DNA of 64,000 bases from a virus (IMGVR_UViG_3300045988_117466:64001-128000); one strand, 5' to 3'. Positions 19,902 through 52,330 are shown, counted from the stretch's first letter. The notes: a model not told the origin generated them from the letters alone. A program made the numbers and translations.

Positions 19902-20708
19902 TTAACTTTCTAACTGATCTTCCAGATCCTTAATCTTAGAATCTCTAAATGCAATTTTCTTTCCAGTACTACGATGATTTGTTTCTATGTATCTACGTTT
20001 CAGATTGTTTAGTACATACTCTGCAGTCATTCTGTACATTGGATTTAGAGAACCAGAAGTTTCAATAATCGATTCAAGTTTATCATCGATCATTGTTACG
20101 ATTTTCTGCTTATACTCAGTTGCATTTAGTTTTCTATGATACTCATAGCGGTCTTTCTTTTTTAAATGAACGTGAACATCAATGATCTTATCAACAGTGG
20201 CTTCCAGATTTGTGTAATCAGATTCTAAAAGAACACGATCAATGTTGCGTACAGAATATTTAATTTTATCTGCATCATACTGTCTCTGAAGCTGACATTC
20301 ATCTGAAACTGCTACATCATATAGATCGTTATTATCTTGCTGAAGTTGTGTGATCAGCTCAATCATTCTCTCAAAAGCATCTGTGTATCTAGCTGTAAAG
20401 ATAAGAGCTTTGTTACCAGTAAACTTGTTTACCAGCATTGCAAATCCTTTACGATCAATATAATACATAGGACGCTCCTGGTTATTTAAATCAAGATAAG
20501 AGCCGAGGGAAAAATTTCCGGCGGCTAATTCAGGGATAACTTCTATAAAATGACGAATCTTTTTCATTACATCTGCATGGTCTTTCCCATAAGTCTCAGC
20601 CACATTGAGAGAAGTGGTGTACACATCACCATTGATCTCTTCAAGACCAAATTCCTCATTAATTTCTGCGATTTCACATTCAATAGCTTTCTTTGTTTCT
20701 TTTAACAT
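19902..20708 (-). CDS. Rha-family phage regulatory protein (intron B cargo)
   Basis: ..TSLNVAETYGKDHADVMKKIRHF..NFSLGSYLDLNNQERPMYYIDRKGFAMLVNKFTGNKALIFTARY.. matches the Rha/pRha pattern. Confidence 0.7.
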   Translation of the reverse strand: MLKETKKAIECEIAEINEEFGLEEINGDVYTTSLNVAETYGKDHADVMKKIRHFIEVIPELAAGNFSLGSYLDLNNQERPMYYIDRKGFAMLVNKFTGNKALIFTARYTDAFERMIELITQLQQDNNDLYDVAVSDECQLQRQYDADKIKYSVRNIDRVLLESDYTNLEATVDKIIDVHVHLKKKDRYEYHRKLNATEYKQKIVTMIDDKLESIIETSGSLNPMYRMTAEYVLNNLKRRYIETNHRSTGKKIAFRDSKIKDLEDQLES

Positions 20709-20793: not shown

Positions 20794-21600
20794 TTAATCT
20801 TCAAGATCCCCAACAACTCTGTAAACAAGTTTCTGACCTTTACCAGTTACATAAGTCTGTGGAACAATCACATTGCAAATCACATGTTCACCAACTTCAA
20901 AACATCCGTTCTCAACGTATCTCTGATATGGCATGTTGTCCCGCATCAGGATTCCATTACTTCTCAGAATCTCAAAAAGACGATTCCTTCCAATGTCATA
21001 TCCATCATTCTGCAACAATTTGGCCATTGTGTTCATGTCGATCGTATCAGAAGAAGCAGTAACACATCTTGCAAAATCTACATCTTCTTTGGAAGCTTCA
21101 AGTTCTCCACGAAGCTCTGCGATTGTAGCTTGCTGAATTTCTAATGCTTTGAGTACAAACTCAGCTTCAGACAGATTTTTATATGGAATGTATCCACCTG
21201 TACGTCTGATCTGTGGAAGAACTTCAGATGTTACCCATCTTTTGAAACGATGTAATTTTTCAATTCTCTCTTCAATAAGGGGGTCATTTTGTGACACCCC
21301 CTTTGCTTTAGCAGGTTGCATTAAGAATAATAATGAATATAGTCCTGATTCATTAAGAACTGTGATGTTTTGCATTCCTCCAGCGGTTTGAATTTTTGCC
21401 ATTGTTTTGTCAGCTTTGTCAATTCTACGCAAGCTACGCTTGTGATTTGTATCTCCAAAAGCTATGCATACATCTTTTCCAACAAACCAAGGTTCATTGT
21501 CAATCTCAACGCATCTGATTGATCCAAATTCGTCATTTACGAAGTTCATGATCTGATTGTTATTTCCTACTTCATTTTCTGCTTTTGTTAAATTTGCCAT
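20794..21600 (-). CDS. Bro-N / KilAC antirepressor-type protein (intron B cargo)
   Basis: ..FGSIRCVEIDNEPWFVGKDVCIAFG..TAGGMQNITVLNESGLYSLLF..FKRWVTSEVLPQIRRTGGY.. is classic Bro-N. The C-terminal half is KilAC-like. Confidence 0.8.
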   Translation of the reverse strand: MANLTKAENEVGNNNQIMNFVNDEFGSIRCVEIDNEPWFVGKDVCIAFGDTNHKRSLRRIDKADKTMAKIQTAGGMQNITVLNESGLYSLLFLMQPAKAKGVSQNDPLIEERIEKLHRFKRWVTSEVLPQIRRTGGYIPYKNLSEAEFVLKALEIQQATIAELRGELEASKEDVDFARCVTASSDTIDMNTMAKLLQNDGYDIGRNRLFEILRSNGILMRDNMPYQRYVENGCFEVGEHVICNVIVPQTYVTGKGQKLVYRVVGDLED

Positions 21601-45281: not shown

Positions 45282-45692
45282 TTAACCCTCCCAATCTTCG
45301 TTTACCAGTTCCTTAAATCTATCAGTGAATTTACCATATGGTTGTAGTTTTGCAGGAACTGTAATAGGTTCTCTGTTCCTTGGATCAACCAATTCCTTTT
45401 CAGGAATATACCGAGATCCCAGTACAATACCAGAAGCGAGAGAAATCTCAGTGTCTTCAGCATCATTAGTTTCTTTCATAATCTTCATAACACAATCAGG
45501 AATAGCATCTAACACGATTTTACAATCACCCTTAGTGAAACCTGTTGCATCAGAAACCATTGAAACAAGATCACGTTGTTTGTGTTTAAAATAATCTCTT
45601 TTTTTCTTTTTCAATTTTCCAGCACCATCCTTTTTATCATTTCTCCGAGTTACAGTCCGTGCTTGCTGCTCATAAAGAGTCAGCGTACACAT
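45282..45692 (-). CDS. HU/IHF-like DNA-binding protein with a Lys-rich N-terminal extension
   Basis: ..DLVSMVSDATGFTKGDCKIVLDAIPDCVMKIM..VDPRNREPITVPAKLQPYGKF.. fits the HU fold pattern. Confidence 0.65.
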   Translation of the reverse strand: MCTLTLYEQQARTVTRRNDKKDGAGKLKKKKRDYFKHKQRDLVSMVSDATGFTKGDCKIVLDAIPDCVMKIMKETNDAEDTEISLASGIVLGSRYIPEKELVDPRNREPITVPAKLQPYGKFTDRFKELVNEDWEG

Positions 45693-45702
45693 TTGGACAT
45701 AG

Positions 45703-45775
<73 letters not shown>

Positions 45776-45959
45776 ACAAAAAGAGTACATTGTAACTACC
45801 AACAATGTACTCAAATTTAGAAAAGAGGTATAAATTATGATTCCTACAAGAAATCTTAATAGCTTTGTAAATCTTTCTGAGGTATGAAACAACAATAGAA
45901 AAGCGCAATAATCAAAACTTCACAAGAAAGGAGATAATATGATTCCTCAGAAAGATTAA

Positions 45960-46031
45960 CAGGGATAACTGGATTTGAACCAGTGAATACAGCAGTCAAA
46001 GTGCTGTGCCTTACCGCTTGGCGATATCCCT
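45960..46031 (-). tRNA. tRNA-Gln (UUG)
   Basis: Acceptor AGGGATA/TATCCCT, anticodon loop CTTTGAC, T-loop TTCAAAT. Confidence 0.85.
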
Positions 46032-46644
46032 ATATGTATTTTAATTTTAAAGCAGGTCTTCACCTTACAGTCATTTGTGGAATAGTTTGTTCTGCAACAT
46101 AGTAGATAAGTCTGAGCTTTGAGGAGCGACCTCTAACTTCTTACCTAAGTCTAAAAGACCAGTTCTATGACATGATCAATACATGCAATGTCAACCCGCC
46201 ATTCAGAATTAAGTTTTATTGTTATATACTCTATTAGCATATATATTCATTTTGAATTTGAACTTACCCTTAACTGACTTGAGCGACATACCAGCGACTT
46301 TTCTTATACACTGTCTTTTGAACAGCTTCACATCAAACTACATTATTTGGCTTTTCCACCTTTTACGTACCTGCCAGAGTACGCATTGAAGTGGATTATT
46401 CTCCACAGGAGCGTCTATTGTTGTAGCGAAAAGTTCTGTGCGTTAACCAGACCAAAATGCTGCACAATATCCATTTGCTTGAGAGTTTCTCTCTTGTCCA
46501 TATCAAATCACTCCGACATAAAAAGAGACACAAAGAACGTATCCGTACAATGTATCTCTCCAATTCGACATATGTGCCTAGAATATTTCTCGGACTCATG
46601 GCATTGAGTTTTATAACCGAGTTGCTTATGTTTTAAAATACAAA
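46032..46644 (-). ncRNA. ORF-free 613-nt insert in the tRNA array; candidate large structured RNA (strand assumed)
   Basis: No credible ORF on either strand. Flanked directly by tRNA-Gln and tRNA-Trp. Several local hairpins (GTGGA..TCCAC, ACGTAC..GTACGT). Confidence 0.3.
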
Positions 46645-46716
46645 CACCCTAAGCTGGATTTGAACCAGCACGAACGGTTTTGGAGACCGTCATTCTACCA
46701 ACTAAATTATTAGGGC
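46645..46716 (-). tRNA. tRNA-Trp (CCA)
   Basis: Acceptor GCCCTAA/TTAGGGT, anticodon loop CTCCAAA, T-loop TTCAAAT. Confidence 0.85.
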
Positions 46717-46723
46717 GATATTA

Positions 46724-46797
46724 CTGACATGACAGGACTCGAACCTGCAACACCAACGTCCGTAGCGTTGTGCTCTGTCCAGTTGAGCTACATGTCA
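46724..46797 (-). tRNA. tRNA-Arg (ACG)
   Basis: Acceptor TGACATG/CATGTCA, anticodon loop CTACGGA, T-loop TTCGAGT. Confidence 0.85.
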
Positions 46798-46841
46798 TTA
46801 AAATTCGACCTCAATCCACATAGGATTTTGAGGTACTTTCG

Positions 46842-46925
46842 TCCCTGTTGAGGGAATCGAACCCACTCGTGACCGAAGCCATCTGATTTACAGTCAGATC
46901 CGCCTCCTTAGCGGGATAAACAGGG
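46842..46925 (-). tRNA. tRNA-Tyr (GUA), long variable arm
   Basis: Acceptor CCCTGTT/AACAGGG, anticodon loop CTGTAAA, variable arm TGGCTTCGGTCA. Confidence 0.8.
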
Positions 46926-46968
46926 ATATAAGCCCGTGAGCTCGAAAGACATCACAGGACAACCTAAA

Positions 46969-47054
46969 CGCTGCGACAAGGATTCGAACCTTGAGGTCAC
47001 TAGGACACAATAGTTTTCAAGACTACGCCGTTATAACCATTTCGGTACCGCAGC
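46969..47054 (-). tRNA. tRNA-Ser (UGA), long variable arm
   Basis: Acceptor GCTGCGG/TCGCAGC, anticodon loop CTTGAAA, T-loop TTCGAAT. Confidence 0.85.
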
Positions 47055-47059
47055 AAAAG

Positions 47060-47151
47060 CGTACAGAGTGGGCTACGACCCCACGTTACATGTATTCGCA
47101 TGTAAACCCAATTAGCAGTCGGGCGCCTTAAACCAACTCAGCCATCTGTAC
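47060..47151 (-). tRNA. tRNA-Ser (GCU), long variable arm, atypical T-loop
   Basis: Acceptor GTACAGA/TCTGTAC, anticodon loop CTGCTAA. T-loop is GTCGTAG rather than TTCRANN. Confidence 0.7.
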
Positions 47152-48341: not shown

Positions 48342-49196
48342 TTATTTTTTGTCAGAATTATAGTATTTAGTATATCTATTTAACTGCATTTCATTCTTAC
48401 AAGAAATACAATACTGTCTAAGCCGTCCTTTACGATGCTTTTTCTTTTTTGAGATGTCTCTAAAAGGTTCTCCACAACAAGAGCATACAGAAATCTCAGG
48501 ATATCCAATAAAGTGAAGATATCTGTTCCCAAGATTCTTGAAGTCTGTAATTTCAAGAGCGACATCTCCTGAATCAGCAAGAATATCTACAGAGAAGTTT
48601 AAGCTATTAACTTTCTTGCTCATTGTTATACAATCGCTTCTGAACAGTCTGCCGATTATTTGGCATCTACGTTCTCTTGTACCTACTGTATTACCCAATG
48701 AGAATAAATCTTTGTAGTCTGTATTCACCCAGCTGTTATTTTGAGGATTCAGAGCATTATAATACTTGGCCAAACAAAGAGCAGTGAAGAGGATCTTTTG
48801 ATCTCTAAGATTCTCTAACCCATTTATAGTTTCCATTTCAGATTCATAGATCGGCAGTGAATCAATTTCTACAAGAGGATACTTTTTAGCTTTATGAATT
48901 ATCTCATCAATGCATGAATACCATTTGGCTTCTCTGTAGCTCTCACAGGACTCTTTTAAGAACTCATTGATAGTTTTATATACCTCTGCAGGTTCTAAGC
49001 CTTCCTCGTGGATATAATACTTTGCAAGCAGGGTAGCAGTATATGGGATACTGCCTTCCAGCTCTTTTGTTTCTAAAATTTTTTCTACCAGTTTTTTTTC
49101 ATTTAGTACGATATTAATAACAATCAGCCTCCTCAAACATAGATGATTCAATTTGTTTAATAGTTTCAATGACGAAAGAATCTCCGTCATATTCAA
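48342..49196 (-). CDS. Hypothetical protein with C-terminal zinc ribbon (start uncertain)
   Basis: CSCCGEPF..YCISCKNE motif. Overlaps the RNAP stop. The only SD (GAGGAGG) is followed by ATT/ATC codons rather than ATG. Confidence 0.4.
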   Translation of the reverse strand: MNMTEILSSLKLLNKLNHLCLRRLIVINIVLNEKKLVEKILETKELEGSIPYTATLLAKYYIHEEGLEPAEVYKTINEFLKESCESYREAKWYSCIDEIIHKAKKYPLVEIDSLPIYESEMETINGLENLRDQKILFTALCLAKYYNALNPQNNSWVNTDYKDLFSLGNTVGTRERRCQIIGRLFRSDCITMSKKVNSLNFSVDILADSGDVALEITDFKNLGNRYLHFIGYPEISVCSCCGEPFRDISKKKKHRKGRLRQYCISCKNEMQLNRYTKYYNSDKK

Positions 49197-50256
49197 AATC
49201 TCCTGATTCAGCTCTTACAGGATAAGAGATCTGGTGATAGTTTCTCTCTAAGAGTCTTTGGACAAGAATGTCTCCAAACATGTCCCATACAAACTGCTTA
49301 CTCTTACCATTGGTGTAGCAGAGATCAAGAAGAATGTCACAAGCTTTCTCAGGATCAGGAACAGCAGTAGCAACAGCTTCTCTGAACAACATGACTCGAT
49401 TATTGATAATGTCTGTTACATTTAGACCAAAACCACCCTTACCGTTGATCAGAGCATTTAAGGTTTTCATTTTCTTTGAATATTCACTGTACAGCTTCTT
49501 AAGAGCATAATAATCATTCTTGTTGTACTCATGATCTCTTTTGAGAATGGAGTAATCAAAATCTGTTTGTGTGTTCAACTTCTTTAAGTATCCATCAAAC
49601 TCATCCTCAAAGAGCTTACAGATTCGATTCATTACACAAGGCCCTGTACCTACAGGCAAGAACTTATAGTAGTGGTCTAAGAATTCCGCTTCATCCTCTG
49701 TGATAGGTTCTGTATCAGCTTTCTTGAGCAATTCATCAATCGTACACCCAAACCAGATGATGCATTTGTCATTTGAAGCTTTCACATAATTTGTATAATC
49801 CTTTCTCAGATGAGAGTAGATGTAGATCATGAAGTATGGCTTCTTGTCAGCTACGATTCTCTGGTTGAATTCTTTCCGCTTACGATCCTTTGGTGAGTCT
49901 TCAGGATGGATGTTATTTTCCTTGCGATTGTACCAGTAAGATGGTATTGGTTTACACACGATGCCTTTTAGACGATCAATACTTCCTTGTTGATATAGCT
50001 GACCACAAATGATTCTGTAATCTAGTTCTTTAAACTCATCACTGTCAGGGGAGTAATGAGACTGTACTTCAAACTGAGAAGTGATGATGTTTGTTGTGAA
50101 GCCAATTTCGTCTCCAAAGGCATCCTTGTAAGCTTTTAGGATGTCTTTCTTTTTGGGAACAATCTTATTAGCCTTACGCTGCACACAAATGATTGATGGA
50201 AGAGGACGATTGTTCTCAACAAGTATTCTGTTGTTAGTTGTGAAGAAGAGGTCTCC
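49114..50256 (-). CDS. Two-barrel (YonO/QDE-1-like) RNA polymerase, exon 2
   Basis: The frame opens GDLFFTTNNRILVEN.. right after G 50257. No SD. Contains SIDRLKG. Confidence 0.65.
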   Translation of the reverse strand, partial: GDLFFTTNNRILVENNRPLPSIICVQRKANKIVPKKKDILKAYKDAFGDEIGFTTNIITSQFEVQSHYSPDSDEFKELDYRIICGQLYQQGSIDRLKGIVCKPIPSYWYNRKENNIHPEDSPKDRKRKEFNQRIVADKKPYFMIYIYSHLRKDYTNYVKASNDKCIIWFGCTIDELLKKADTEPITEDEAEFLDHYYKFLPVGTGPCVMNRICKLFEDEFDGYLKKLNTQTDFDYSILKRDHEYNKNDYYALKKLYSEYSKKMKTLNALINGKGGFGLNVTDIINNRVMLFREAVATAVPDPEKACDILLDLCYTNGKSKQFVWDMFGDILVQRLLERNYHQISYPVRAESGDFEYDGDSFVIETIKQIESSMFEEADCY

Positions 50257-50599
50257 CGATGTACCCTCGGTTTCCCGATATTTATGGAGAAAGGGGACTA
50301 GACTATATCATTACACAGCATAGGTCTTACACTGTGATGCTCGGCACTTCCCTTGGGGAGTTTCACCCTTTTGGTACTCTACTTGCTACCGATACCGTAT
50401 TCCTCGAATATCAGTGCTTTGGTTAGTCGTTTAACTTTCAATTTCTTGCTTAGCACAGGATTACCACCGACTCTACTCGCTGAGGCTTCCCTGTTAGCAC
50501 ATGTGTTAACTTCCATTTCCTGAAGCTACTGTATGTCACATGTACACCTTACATTTGTAAGTTCACCGAGTTTTACTTCGACAAATGGTATGCTCAGAT
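50257..50599 (-). mobile_element. ORF-less group I intron R (343 nt) in the RNA polymerase gene
   Basis: 7-bp P1 CTTCGAT|/GTCGAAG (50606-50600 / 50582-50576) with U.G at the splice site, terminal G at 50257. Core-like AATCCTGTGCTAAGC at 50448-50462. Splicing restores DFDGD in frame. Confidence 0.85.
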
Positions 50600-52330
50600 A
50601 TCGAAGTCGCAGCCGTTAAGTGATTCACATGTATTGTCCCAATTGTTGATCACACAAATGGATGGGAGATACTGGAACCAATATGAAAGCTGCTCATTGT
50701 TCTTCACTTTAAGATTGACGATATTGTAATGGCTTGTCATTGGAGCTCTGAAACAAGCTACTTCATCAACCTGTCTATCAACCCAATGCTTGTGATACAT
50801 TTCTCCTGCTTTAAGTAATCCTGTGACTTCAAGCCCAAACATAGACTGCATGAGAGCATATGGATCACCAGCAACGATTGAATAATTACCTTTCACTTTG
50901 ATGCGTCCAATCTTAGCATCTTGGATTCGTTTCTTAATGAGCGAATGAATCTTAGATCGAATGAAAGGATCTTTGATCATCTCAGGTTCAGCTATGAGTG
51001 CCTGGATGTATGTAAAAGCATCTGACTGTAAGATGTTCTTCTCAGTCATATTCTTACCTCGTAGGAAGAGCAGAGTCTTTCTGTAATCCATTCCAAGAAT
51101 GTCTTTGATCTCTTTTATGGTTGGCTCACAAAGCTCTCTTATTTGGGCGTCTGTGAGGTGATAGCTCTGTAAGAACTGATAGTTAAGATTTCTTTCAGTA
51201 TCACATTCTTGTTCAGCTGTCTTGGCAAGAGCAAAGTGATAATCATACTTCTCAATGTTCTCTAAGTAGTCTTCCATGGAATCATATGCGTCCCAGAGTT
51301 TAAACATAGATGTTGTAAGTATCACCTGAGCGTCTCTAACGTCCCTAGGATGGCCCCAAGCATCAATAATGGTATAAGTGTTGGCTACGTTCTCTGCAAA
51401 GGCTCTAAAGTCCATACAGTGAAGCATACCTTTACAGAATGGCCAACCTCTCATGTTGCCAGATGGAAGAGGAGTATCATAATCTCCATTCAGTTCACCA
51501 TTCCATTGCTTTGCAAGTTCTGGAAGAACTAATCCTTCTCCATCAGATCCATTGTGCACAAACTCTTGGTTATCAAGAAGAGTTACTTCTGGTTCATCTG
51601 AGTTTGTATCATCCACATAAAGAGCTTGTCCCTTAAAGACCGTCTCACAATCTTGTACAACAATCACTCCTGATGGTGGAGTAACAACTGTAGAAGAAGA
51701 GCAGAAGAGTGCTTTGTATGCTCCAAGCTTGTGAGTTATGATCGGAACCTCTTTGTTCCTTCCTGCATCTACTTTCTCACAGAGAGTATCGTACACGTTG
51801 TCACTGACAAAGATTACAACACTGTTCTTTAATCCTCCTGTAGTTCCTAAGAAGAGATTGTAGTGAAGATCGTTTACAATGAATCCATGCTTGCTACAGT
51901 AGTCATAATCTTTCTTTGTGTCGAAGACCACTGTGAGGTAGTCTGTTTGGAATCGACATTTGTACAAGTCATTGTAGAGTAGTGAGATAAGTTCTTTGCT
52001 TCCTCTGTTGGCTGAAAGCTCTTTGATCTTCTTTCGGATTCTTTTTGCTCTTATGTCTGAATCATAGTCATGGATTAATGAGTCGATTGTTCTTAATGCT
52101 TCAGAGCTTGAAAGAGTAATAATGTCATCTCCATTCTCCCTCGCTTCATTGAGTGGTAGAGAAAGTTTCCACTTCGCCTTTCTTAACCGGCTGCTGTGTA
52201 GTTTGTAAATATATTTCTGACTCGTCTTTTGCTTAGAAATAATGATCACTCCTTTTTTGATTTTTGTGTATGTTTTTACAGTAAATTGGAAAAATATGGA
52301 AAGCGAGTATATTTTCATATAAATACTCAT
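50600..52330 (-). CDS. Two-barrel (YonO/QDE-1-like) RNA polymerase, exon 1 (start uncertain)
   Basis: Ends ..ACFRAPMTSHYNIVNLKV..NWDNTCESLNGCDFD|. The only SD (AGGAG 52253-52249) is followed by ATC/ATT/ATT at 52246-52238. The upstream ATGs lack an SD. Confidence 0.6.

Follow-up and report, generated by a model that had tools for sequence, protein, structure and literature searches.

A phage gene for a YonO/QDE-1-type RNA polymerase with a candidate mobile group I intron in its catalytic loop

RNA polymerases (RNAPs) of the YonO type and group I introns inserted in the catalytic motifs of phage genes are both already well known. YonO is a DNA-dependent RNAP that transcribes the late genes of SPbeta, and its aspartate triad is essential (Forrest et al. 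2017, PMC5467207). In phage PhiPA3, gp210 is an I-HmuI-like HNH nicking endonuclease belonging to an intron in the gene of the beta-like subunit of the virion RNAP, and it acts in competition with phage PhiKZ (Birkholz et al. 2024, PMC11620839). In the literature that we searched we found no report of an intron in the YonO branch of two-barrel polymerases, nor the combination of host gene, insertion site, multiple sites and polymorphism described here. The locus lies in a stretch of 64,000 nucleotides (nt) of virus DNA (IMGVR_UViG_3300045988_117466:64001-128000), hereafter the window, to the whole of which all positions refer, with the RNAP gene on its minus strand. The explanation that we prefer, with a probability of roughly 0.88, is that the locus is the gene of a phage single-chain two-barrel RNAP, a relative of YonO at the level of an ortholog, situated near the head of a late operon of packaging and structural genes and interrupted within D-x-D/G-D (here and below, the slash marks the point of insertion) by a mobile IA group I intron of Firmicute phages.

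A minus-strand open reading frame (ORF) at 52330-50594 terminates in ..NWDNTCESLNGCDFDI and a stop codon, its last residues being ..NWDNTCESLNGCDFD-I-stop. It is open upstream as far as ATG 52330, but this extension lacks conservation. Exon 1, whose last base is 50600 (..NGCDFD), covers the beta-like barrel and R-x-P together with two catalytic aspartates, the first (GAC 50608-50606) and the second (GAT 50602-50600); a TGA follows in frame as the second codon beyond the 5' splice site. Directly after G50257 the frame reopens with GDLFFTTNNRILVEN.. (GDLFF..) and continues to the stop codon of exon 2, which also encodes the invariant ID-x-x-K motif (SIDRLKG). Ligation of 50600 to 50256 in silico is in frame and yields ..SLNGCDFDGDLFF.. 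(NGCDFDGDLFF), the predicted nucleotide junction being ..TGCGACTTCGAT / GGAGACCTCTTC... Counted from the upstream ATG, the spliced ORF has 958 codons including the stop, or 957 amino acids (aa). A preliminary description of this DNA, made from the sequence alone, had proposed the first ORF, the reopening after G50257 into a second ORF (50184-49114) with only a GTG, and the in-frame join with a maximum of 958 codons; translation confirmed all of these. GTG 50184 is the first ATG, GTG or TTG in the frame of exon 2 and lies 24 codons beyond the junction. Since exon 2 thus has no initiation site of its own covering its conserved residues, it would be translatable only following ligation of the exons, and an unspliced transcript could yield only a fragment of 547-577 aa that lacks the third aspartate. 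Exon 2 of the window and of the intron-bearing allele L009 differ with a nonsynonymous rate (dN) of 0.001 and a synonymous rate (dS) of 0.267 (dN/dS 0.004), and the exon stays open in lineages whose synonymous sites are saturated, which indicates strong purifying selection.

The exact junction is given by comparison with uninterrupted relatives. A database search found a 930-aa uninterrupted homolog (P0001), 97% identical to the window protein, and a tblastn search of this protein against 88 related loci breaks precisely at residues 550/551 in the window as well as at 13 further loci, the inserts measuring 317 nt in Clostridium phage c-st and otherwise 336-354 nt or 897-910 nt. Over 2793 nt, the coding sequence spliced in silico is collinear with three alleles from metagenomes that have no interruption (94-95% identity), and it is collinear also with the intron-less alleles L001 and L008. 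All five uninterrupted alleles, which are 94-97% identical to the window gene, read straight through the predicted junction, and removal of the insert restores the uninterrupted reading frame conserved in them and in the homologs. The one ORF within the insert has 45 codons (50516-50379) and overlies the ribozyme core, so the earlier statement that the intron is ORF-less stands for ORFs of the size of a homing endonuclease. Metagenome contigs were also searched for the ligated junction, with transcripts in view; the matches were long DNA contigs only, that is, the intron-less alleles.

The insert can be folded as a group I ribozyme (Table 1). P1 has 8 bp, formed by the exon sequence ACUUCGAU and the guide GUCGAAGU, with a wobble pair U50600·G50582 at the 5' splice site, and it is recovered by minimum free energy (MFE) folding. 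The guide bases GTCGAAG (50582-50576) and the U·G pair had been recognised before, and the length of 7 bp then proposed is to be corrected, as one more base pairs. A homologous intron in locus L210 carries a retargeted guide, GUCUGC, that pairs with its exon GCAGAU, and in c-st the guide co-varies with its exon (as judged by eye). P3 was ambiguous within the set of close introns and was settled by 11 divergent family members, in which nine different 5-nt strands occur and all pair 5/5, versus 2.9/5 in cross-combinations. An alternative P3, GUGCU/AGCAU, was rejected because it is in competition with a covarying hairpin stem and L210 lacks it, while CUCGG/CCGAG has nine compensatory states. The stems of the two peripheral hairpins that follow show compensatory changes in 3, 4 and 4 pairs. 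Their placement, after the 5' strand of P3 and not before P3, is common to the lineage (it is found also in L098, L115, L135, L156, L168, L175, L183, L197 and L210), with the conserved sequences UGAAC, GGUGU and GCUAAC flanking them; when the literature was searched for hairpins with a name (P3.1/P3.2) in the interval from P3 to P4, no relevant report came up. P7.1 (nine pairs, five with double changes) and P7.2 (whose inner pairs covary) are both present, and for this reason we assign the intron to the phage IA type. The J8/7-P7 sequence is AAUGAUAUAGUCU. G50257 is the terminal guanosine before the 3' splice site, where all 13 of 13 related introns end in ..CG or ..AG, and the inner hairpin of the P9 region covaries in c-st, with CAUG/CAUG instead of CGG/CCG (by eye).

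In order to quantify the covariation we used an alignment of eight related introns with 81 pairs in P1, P3, P4-P6, P7, P7.1, P7.2, P8, P9 and P9a. Standard pairs fill 96.6% of its cells, versus 32-39% with slid partners, and 26 pairs are changed on both sides, versus 10.3 +/- 2.3 in shuffled alignments (0 of 500 shuffles reach 26). P4, P6, P7 and P9 are invariant in this set and take all of their support from the Rfam alignment. In a local scan of 551 nt, the Rfam group I model RF00028 spans 50569-50278 end to end (model positions 1-253) with 26.8 bits and E = 7.9e-05; the group I model is likewise the best Rfam match of the c-st intervening sequence (E = 0.004), and an Rfam scan with E-value reporting produced no match with E <= 0.1 in five related loci. 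Since the Rfam model is insensitive for this lineage, an nhmmer family profile was used instead; models capture the heterogeneous IA introns of phages poorly, and RF00028 under-detects phage introns (PMC11878797). Together, the Rfam match, the break at 550/551, the covariation and the compensatory P3 strands support the earlier proposal of ribozyme splicing and identify the insert as an intron of group I, the excision of which would recreate the catalytic loop.

As for the protein itself, BLASTP aligns the spliced product with SPbeta YonO (E = 3e-28, 28% identity over 506 aa), placing LNGCDFDGD on YonO LLQFDNDGD (DFDGD to DNDGD), and tblastn matches to SPbeta-like phages have E values from 1e-17 to 3e-22. 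The fold was assessed with an AlphaFold model of P0001 (predicted local distance difference test score, pLDDT, 87.8; predicted template modelling score, pTM, 0.83). In a Foldseek search of the PDB, the top 21 matches are all QDE-1 or RDR2 (E 1e-17 to 5e-13, template modelling score 0.40-0.49, probability 1.00), and bacterial beta-prime subunits appear merely as weak matches. The same search of BFVD returns phage models labelled "RdRP" (RNA-dependent RNA polymerase), among them one of 563 aa that covers only the half encoded by exon 1. PDB searches with a single sequence or a shallow profile gave nothing; a profile of 51 family sequences, which included YonO and distant representatives, matched only RDR2 (2e-05) and QDE-1 (1e-03) in the PDB, aligning sDfDgDl with RDR2 GGDLDGDLFF. 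Further, the Pfam RdRP family PF05183 matches 19 of 36 homologs with 45-59% identity (best E = 4.3e-17). Residues R501, P503, D548, D550, D552, D236, K273 and K317 are invariant in the 51 sequences, YonO included. The D-x-D-G-D loop and R-x-P of a beta-prime-like barrel and the conserved Asp and Lys of a beta-like barrel are all present, and the invariant residues fit the eight-residue signature of two-barrel RNAPs (PMC2919709). These comparisons, of sequences and of a predicted model, support the identification of the spliced product as a YonO/QDE-1-type two-barrel RNA polymerase, and by analogy with YonO it would carry out DNA-dependent late transcription; its place near the head of the late operon is consistent with such a role. 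The preliminary description had named this family and proposed structure and profile comparisons with YonO and QDE-1, both of which are now matched; the link that it also drew, to the crAss virion RNAP (gp66 type), was not recovered among 50 listed PDB or 50 listed BFVD Foldseek matches.

Table 1. Features of the RNAP locus and its surroundings. All positions are those of the window.
Feature	Positions	Strand	Basis or remark
Exon 1 of RNAP gene	50600-52240	-	Sequence, tblastn break, alignment to YonO
Exon 2 of RNAP gene	49114-50256	-	Opens GGA GAC (Gly and third catalytic Asp); stop TAA 49116-49114
Group I intron, 343 nt, IA-type, without endonuclease ORF	50257-50599	-	Rfam, covariation, allele comparison
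Internal guide sequence GUCGAAGU	50575-50582	-	P1 with exon bases 50607-50600
P3 5' strand CUCGG	50566-50570	-	Pairs with CCGAG 50344-50340
Two peripheral hairpins between P3 5' strand and J3/4	50497-50561 (50561-50548, 50545-50497)	-	Covariation
P4-P5-P6 domain	50434-50493	-	P6a is CAA-GAAA-UUG tetraloop hairpin 50448-50439
P7	50430, 50428-50424 with 50305-50300 (within 50300-50430)	-	Encloses P7.1, P7.2, P3 3' strand and P8
P7.1	50417-50385	-	Rfam alignment, covariation alignment
P7.2	50371-50353	-	Rfam alignment, covariation alignment
P8	50336-50314	-	Rfam alignment, covariation alignment
P9, P9a (GAAA tetraloop) and terminal guanosine G50257	50257-50295	-	Covariation alignment
Extended Shine-Dalgarno AAAGGAGTGATC	52244-52255	-	Sequence; recurs across family
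Probable start codon ATT	52238-52240	-	8 nt after AGGAG; family alignment
HU-like gene	45282-45692	-	ORF analysis
ROOL RNA	46034-46645	-	Rfam, 303.7 bits; inside seven-tRNA array 45703-47151
Conserved ORF downstream of RNAP gene	48342-49196	-	Ortholog of c-st CST177, E = 6e-23

The presence of the intron varies among close alleles. Among those 94-99% identical to the window gene it is found in nine (seven ORF-less, two with an HNH ORF in P6) and is absent in five (L001, L008, L213, L214 and L215, in all of which the gene is intact), and for this reason it behaves as a dispensable mobile element. An HNH_3 (Pfam) ORF of 157-177 aa, homologous to I-HmuI (PDB 1U3E, E = 1.2e-07), lies in P6 of L002, L003, L005, L014 and L015; in the window intron P6a takes the position of this ORF. 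Compared with the intron-less L001, the intron-bearing alleles have 24-33 substitutions per 150 nt across the 300 nt that directly follow the insertion site, versus only 0-6 per 150 nt in ten upstream bins, and the intron-less L008 is nearly identical around the junction to L014, an allele with an HNH-bearing intron. Together these patterns form the footprint to be expected of homing with co-conversion, or of precise loss. At the insertion site itself L001 (7636-7665) is recoded as GCC GAT CAC GAT GGC (ADHD-G), and the window and L008 (5636-5665) read TG[CT] GAC TTC GAT GG[AG] (CDFD-G); the L001 site would not pair with the intron guide and may be a homing-resistant allele.

The lineage is also found outside this site. 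By blastn, the ribozyme core resembles introns in 256 Firmicute-phage records, the closest of which has an HNH ORF and interrupts a gene that its record annotates as nrdD. The family profile together with blastn places the lineage in nrdD by flank resemblance too, and flanking translations, judged by eye and used as the only criterion, point to terminase-like, tape-measure-like and DNA-polymerase-like genes. Within the YonO family there are at least three intron positions, after D548, D550 and D644, a multiplicity that fits the targeting of conserved DNA and not regulation. The L210 intron is the one after D548, 6 nt upstream of the window site and behind the first catalytic aspartate (NGAD/FDSD). 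A second hot spot is the invariant QQxxID/xxKG motif at residues 644/645 (L015 6834-7971; L007 3060-3515), at which the window is uninterrupted (SIDRLKG). Several representatives among P0151-P0214 end at the same 644/645 point. A megablast search of the locus against phage records gave no match, and no entry identical to the exon-1 ORF of the window came up in an exact-sequence look-up.

For the start of the gene we compared 57 distinct sequences of the family (loci L001-L087). The codon in line with ATT 52240-52238 of the window directly precedes a conserved [SA]-K-Q, 7-11 nt after a GGAG/GAGG-type motif, and it is ATT in 17 sequences, ATA in 16, CTG in 11, TTG in 6, ATG in 3, ATC in 3 and GTG in 1, that is, a canonical ATG, TTG or GTG in 10 versus ATT, ATA, ATC or CTG in 47. 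An upstream in-frame stop leaves no canonical alternative in 16 of the sequences. In the window, AGGAG (52253-52249) is followed by GTG, ATC, ATT and ATT; the earlier remark that no ATG has a Shine-Dalgarno and that AGGAG precedes ATC/ATT/ATT was correct, with the GTG intervening, and the pattern proved to be family-wide. This GTG (52249-52247) sits inside AAAGGAGTGATC, and either AAAGGAGTGATC or GAGGTGA recurs at the equivalent position throughout the family. We take both motifs to be complementary to the 3' tail of 16S rRNA (..GGAUCACCUCCUUUCU-3'), and because of this match the GTG would be part of an extended Shine-Dalgarno, which makes ATT 52240-52238 the most likely start codon, with a product of 927 aa. 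Two other candidates were rejected: ATG 52330, as stop codons interrupt the frame of close relatives in this upstream part, and GTG 52249, since besides its place inside the Shine-Dalgarno the aligned codon is a stop in many lineages.

Under the explanation that we prefer, the primary transcript would fold into the ribozyme, and exogenous guanosine would attack the phosphate after U50600, held in the U·G pair of P1. The freed exon 1 would then attack after the terminal G50257, ligating the exons into an mRNA for a protein of ~927 aa with the loop NGCDFDGD, while in unspliced transcripts the TGA two codons into the intron would halt ribosomes ahead of the ribozyme core. The intron would be a selfish homing element rather than a dedicated regulator, and its place in the catalytic loop would reflect the fact that no other target in the gene is as conserved. 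The window copy would have lost, or never gained, an I-HmuI-like HNH nicking endonuclease, and vertical inheritance could maintain it, or it might be moved in trans.

Several results weigh against this explanation. At 26.8 bits, the RF00028 match does not reach the gathering threshold (50 bits), and over the whole window Rfam neither reports an intron at gathering thresholds nor lists it with E-value reporting. The MFE z-score of the intron region, -0.98, is unremarkable, and the arrangement of two hairpins between P3 and J3/4 matched no named subgroup. Splicing itself is a step that we infer from sequence comparison. On the side of the protein, Pfam gives no match for the spliced window product at E <= 1, PF05183 included, and for the kind of template, DNA or RNA, we extrapolate from YonO. 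Finally, the window copy has no homing endonuclease ORF, a GAAA tetraloop capping P6a, and therefore its current mobility is only putative.

It could be asked whether the two ORFs are instead a split gene, whose separate polypeptides assemble, or a pseudogene disrupted by the insertion. Existing records describe the gene in this way: CST179 and CST178 are annotated as separate proteins in c-st, and phage CB473P3 is annotated similarly, PHROGs has families for exon 1 only and for exon 2 only, and the 563-aa BFVD model matches the exon-1 half by itself. The two chains would, however, have to share the metal-binding loop, and a product started at GTG 50184 would miss the third aspartate and 24 conserved residues. 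Moreover, the insert is a ribozyme structure with covariation, its breakpoint is codon-exact against uninterrupted alleles, and exon 2 evolves with a dN/dS of 0.004, all of which makes a split or dead gene very improbable. An intein, a frameshift or an insertion sequence was rejected for the in-frame stops, the ribozyme fold and the exact codon-phase boundaries of the insert. The preliminary description had also held that production of the active enzyme is gated by splicing, and literally this is right, as no active enzyme would be made without it. A regulatory gate, in which the intron is kept in order to time or dose the RNAP through splicing efficiency (for example by the level of guanosine triphosphate, the translation state or host factors), is a further claim; it would suit the intron's presence in 9 of 14 close alleles and a near-cognate start, which suggests low translation and hence a tightly dosed enzyme. 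The same alleles speak against it, since five of them do without the intron and keep the gene intact, which marks it as dispensable. Siblings carry a homing endonuclease and the flanking exon has a co-conversion tract, the lineage interrupts nrdD too and, to judge by resemblance of the flanks, terminase-like and tape-measure-like genes, and three positions within one gene (D548, D550 and D644) fit the targeting of conserved DNA. We thus consider the regulatory part of the claim unsupported and the reading as a whole improbable, if somewhat less so than a split gene.

A different proposal extends the selfish-element explanation and is not strictly an alternative to it: the HNH-bearing introns would serve as weapons between phages, nicking the RNAP gene of intron-less relatives that co-infect the cell, and the window copy would be an immunity allele. 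We hold this, by analogy, as a tentative idea that is rather doubtful at present. It has a precedent in a phage RNAP gene beside conserved aspartates, PhiPA3 gp210 against PhiKZ (PMC11620839), siblings with HNH ORFs occupy the identical site, and the recoded site of L001 with its divergent downstream tract resembles an escape allele; yet the window encodes no endonuclease, and plain selfish homing would be expected to leave the same co-conversion footprint. The broadest form of the proposal, concerning phages of Clostridia and Lachnospiraceae, joins two layers of control and conflict: a YonO-type gene with a throttled near-cognate start, whose catalytic motifs (D-x-D/G-D and I-D/x-x-K) would be contested by I-HmuI-type weapons, with ORF-less introns as immunity alleles. 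This too we regard as speculative and on balance unlikely. The AUU start codon of infC is sensitive to IF3, and a throttled RNAP start would resemble it.

The RNAP gene is located near the head of a run of minus-strand ORFs of ~50 kb, with plus-strand ORFs diverging from about 55 kb. Downstream of it come, in this order, a conserved ORF of 284 aa, the gene of a 3D-domain protein, an array of seven tRNAs that includes a ROOL RNA, and then genes for one HU-like and one exonuclease-like protein, followed by those of the large terminase and the portal. In the 284-aa ORF the CST177 homology sets in near 49121, a point without a canonical start; an ATT (49118-49116), which overlaps the stop codon of the RNAP gene and is preceded by GAGGAGG, may be another AUU start. 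Two adjacent ORFs of 268 aa in the structural region (19902-20708 and 20794-21600, minus strand, from the ORF list) may be a tandem duplication. Relatives are phages of the gut type, uncultivated and 60-130 kb in size, together with Enterocloster phages and a single Roseburia metagenome-assembled genome, the latter, at 45% identity, being all that a scan of bacterial genomes for a host returned.

The intron offers an explanation for long-standing split annotations. The gene is routinely annotated as two or three "hypothetical proteins" (in c-st since 2005, in Enterocloster phages, in the two PHROG half-families and in the BFVD half-model), and because of this a phage RNAP is missed or mislabelled "RNA-dependent", with Rfam thresholds providing no rescue. 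The rule that mobile introns occupy the most conserved catalytic DNA would extend to the YonO branch, with intron presence varying within species. Natural alleles of one gene with the intron, without it and with the endonuclease could be used for tests of homing and competition in phages of gut Clostridia. The near-cognate starts, if true, would be an unusually clear case of non-canonical initiation across a whole gene family in bacteria.

Among the described systems close to the window protein is YonO of the Bacillus prophage SPbeta, with sequence homology, an aligned D-x-D-G-D triad and common invariant residues. Its gene also heads a late operon and has an HU-like gene downstream (yonN in SPbeta). 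The window protein is, however, ~90 aa longer and only 28% identical, and the YonO gene is uninterrupted and starts with TTG, where the window gene probably starts with ATT. The C-terminal CxxC..CxxC of YonO seems to reside in the window on a separate downstream ORF, the CST177-like one, whose C-terminus weakly resembles the extreme C-terminus of YonO (E = 0.016). With QDE-1 and RDR2 (PDB 2J7N, 7W82 and 7ROZ; PF05183) the window protein shares the overall fold over 740-990 aligned columns, but at an identity of only 11-14% and with a miss of the Pfam model, and its role, judging from YonO, would be DNA-templated phage transcription and not RNA interference.

On the side of the intron, the closest precedent is that of PhiPA3 gp210, which is likewise of group I and placed beside catalytic aspartate codons of a phage RNAP gene, and siblings of the window intron carry the same kind of ORF. 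There, however, the host gene encodes a subunit of a multisubunit jumbo-phage RNAP and the motif is in the beta-like barrel, whereas here the polymerase is single-chain and YonO-type, the motif is the beta-prime-like DxDGD, and the window copy has no endonuclease. The IA2 introns of Firmicute and T-even phages (SPO1 and SP82 DNA polymerase with I-HmuI; Staphylococcus phages Twort and K; T4 td, nrdB and nrdD) share with it P7.1 and P7.2, the peripheral-loop location of the ORF, a stop codon in frame soon after the 5' splice site and insertion in a conserved catalytic motif. Its P4-P6 and J8/7-P7 sequences are presumably td-like as well. It differs from them in its new host gene and site, in the two hairpins that follow the 5' strand of P3, and in an Rfam score below threshold.

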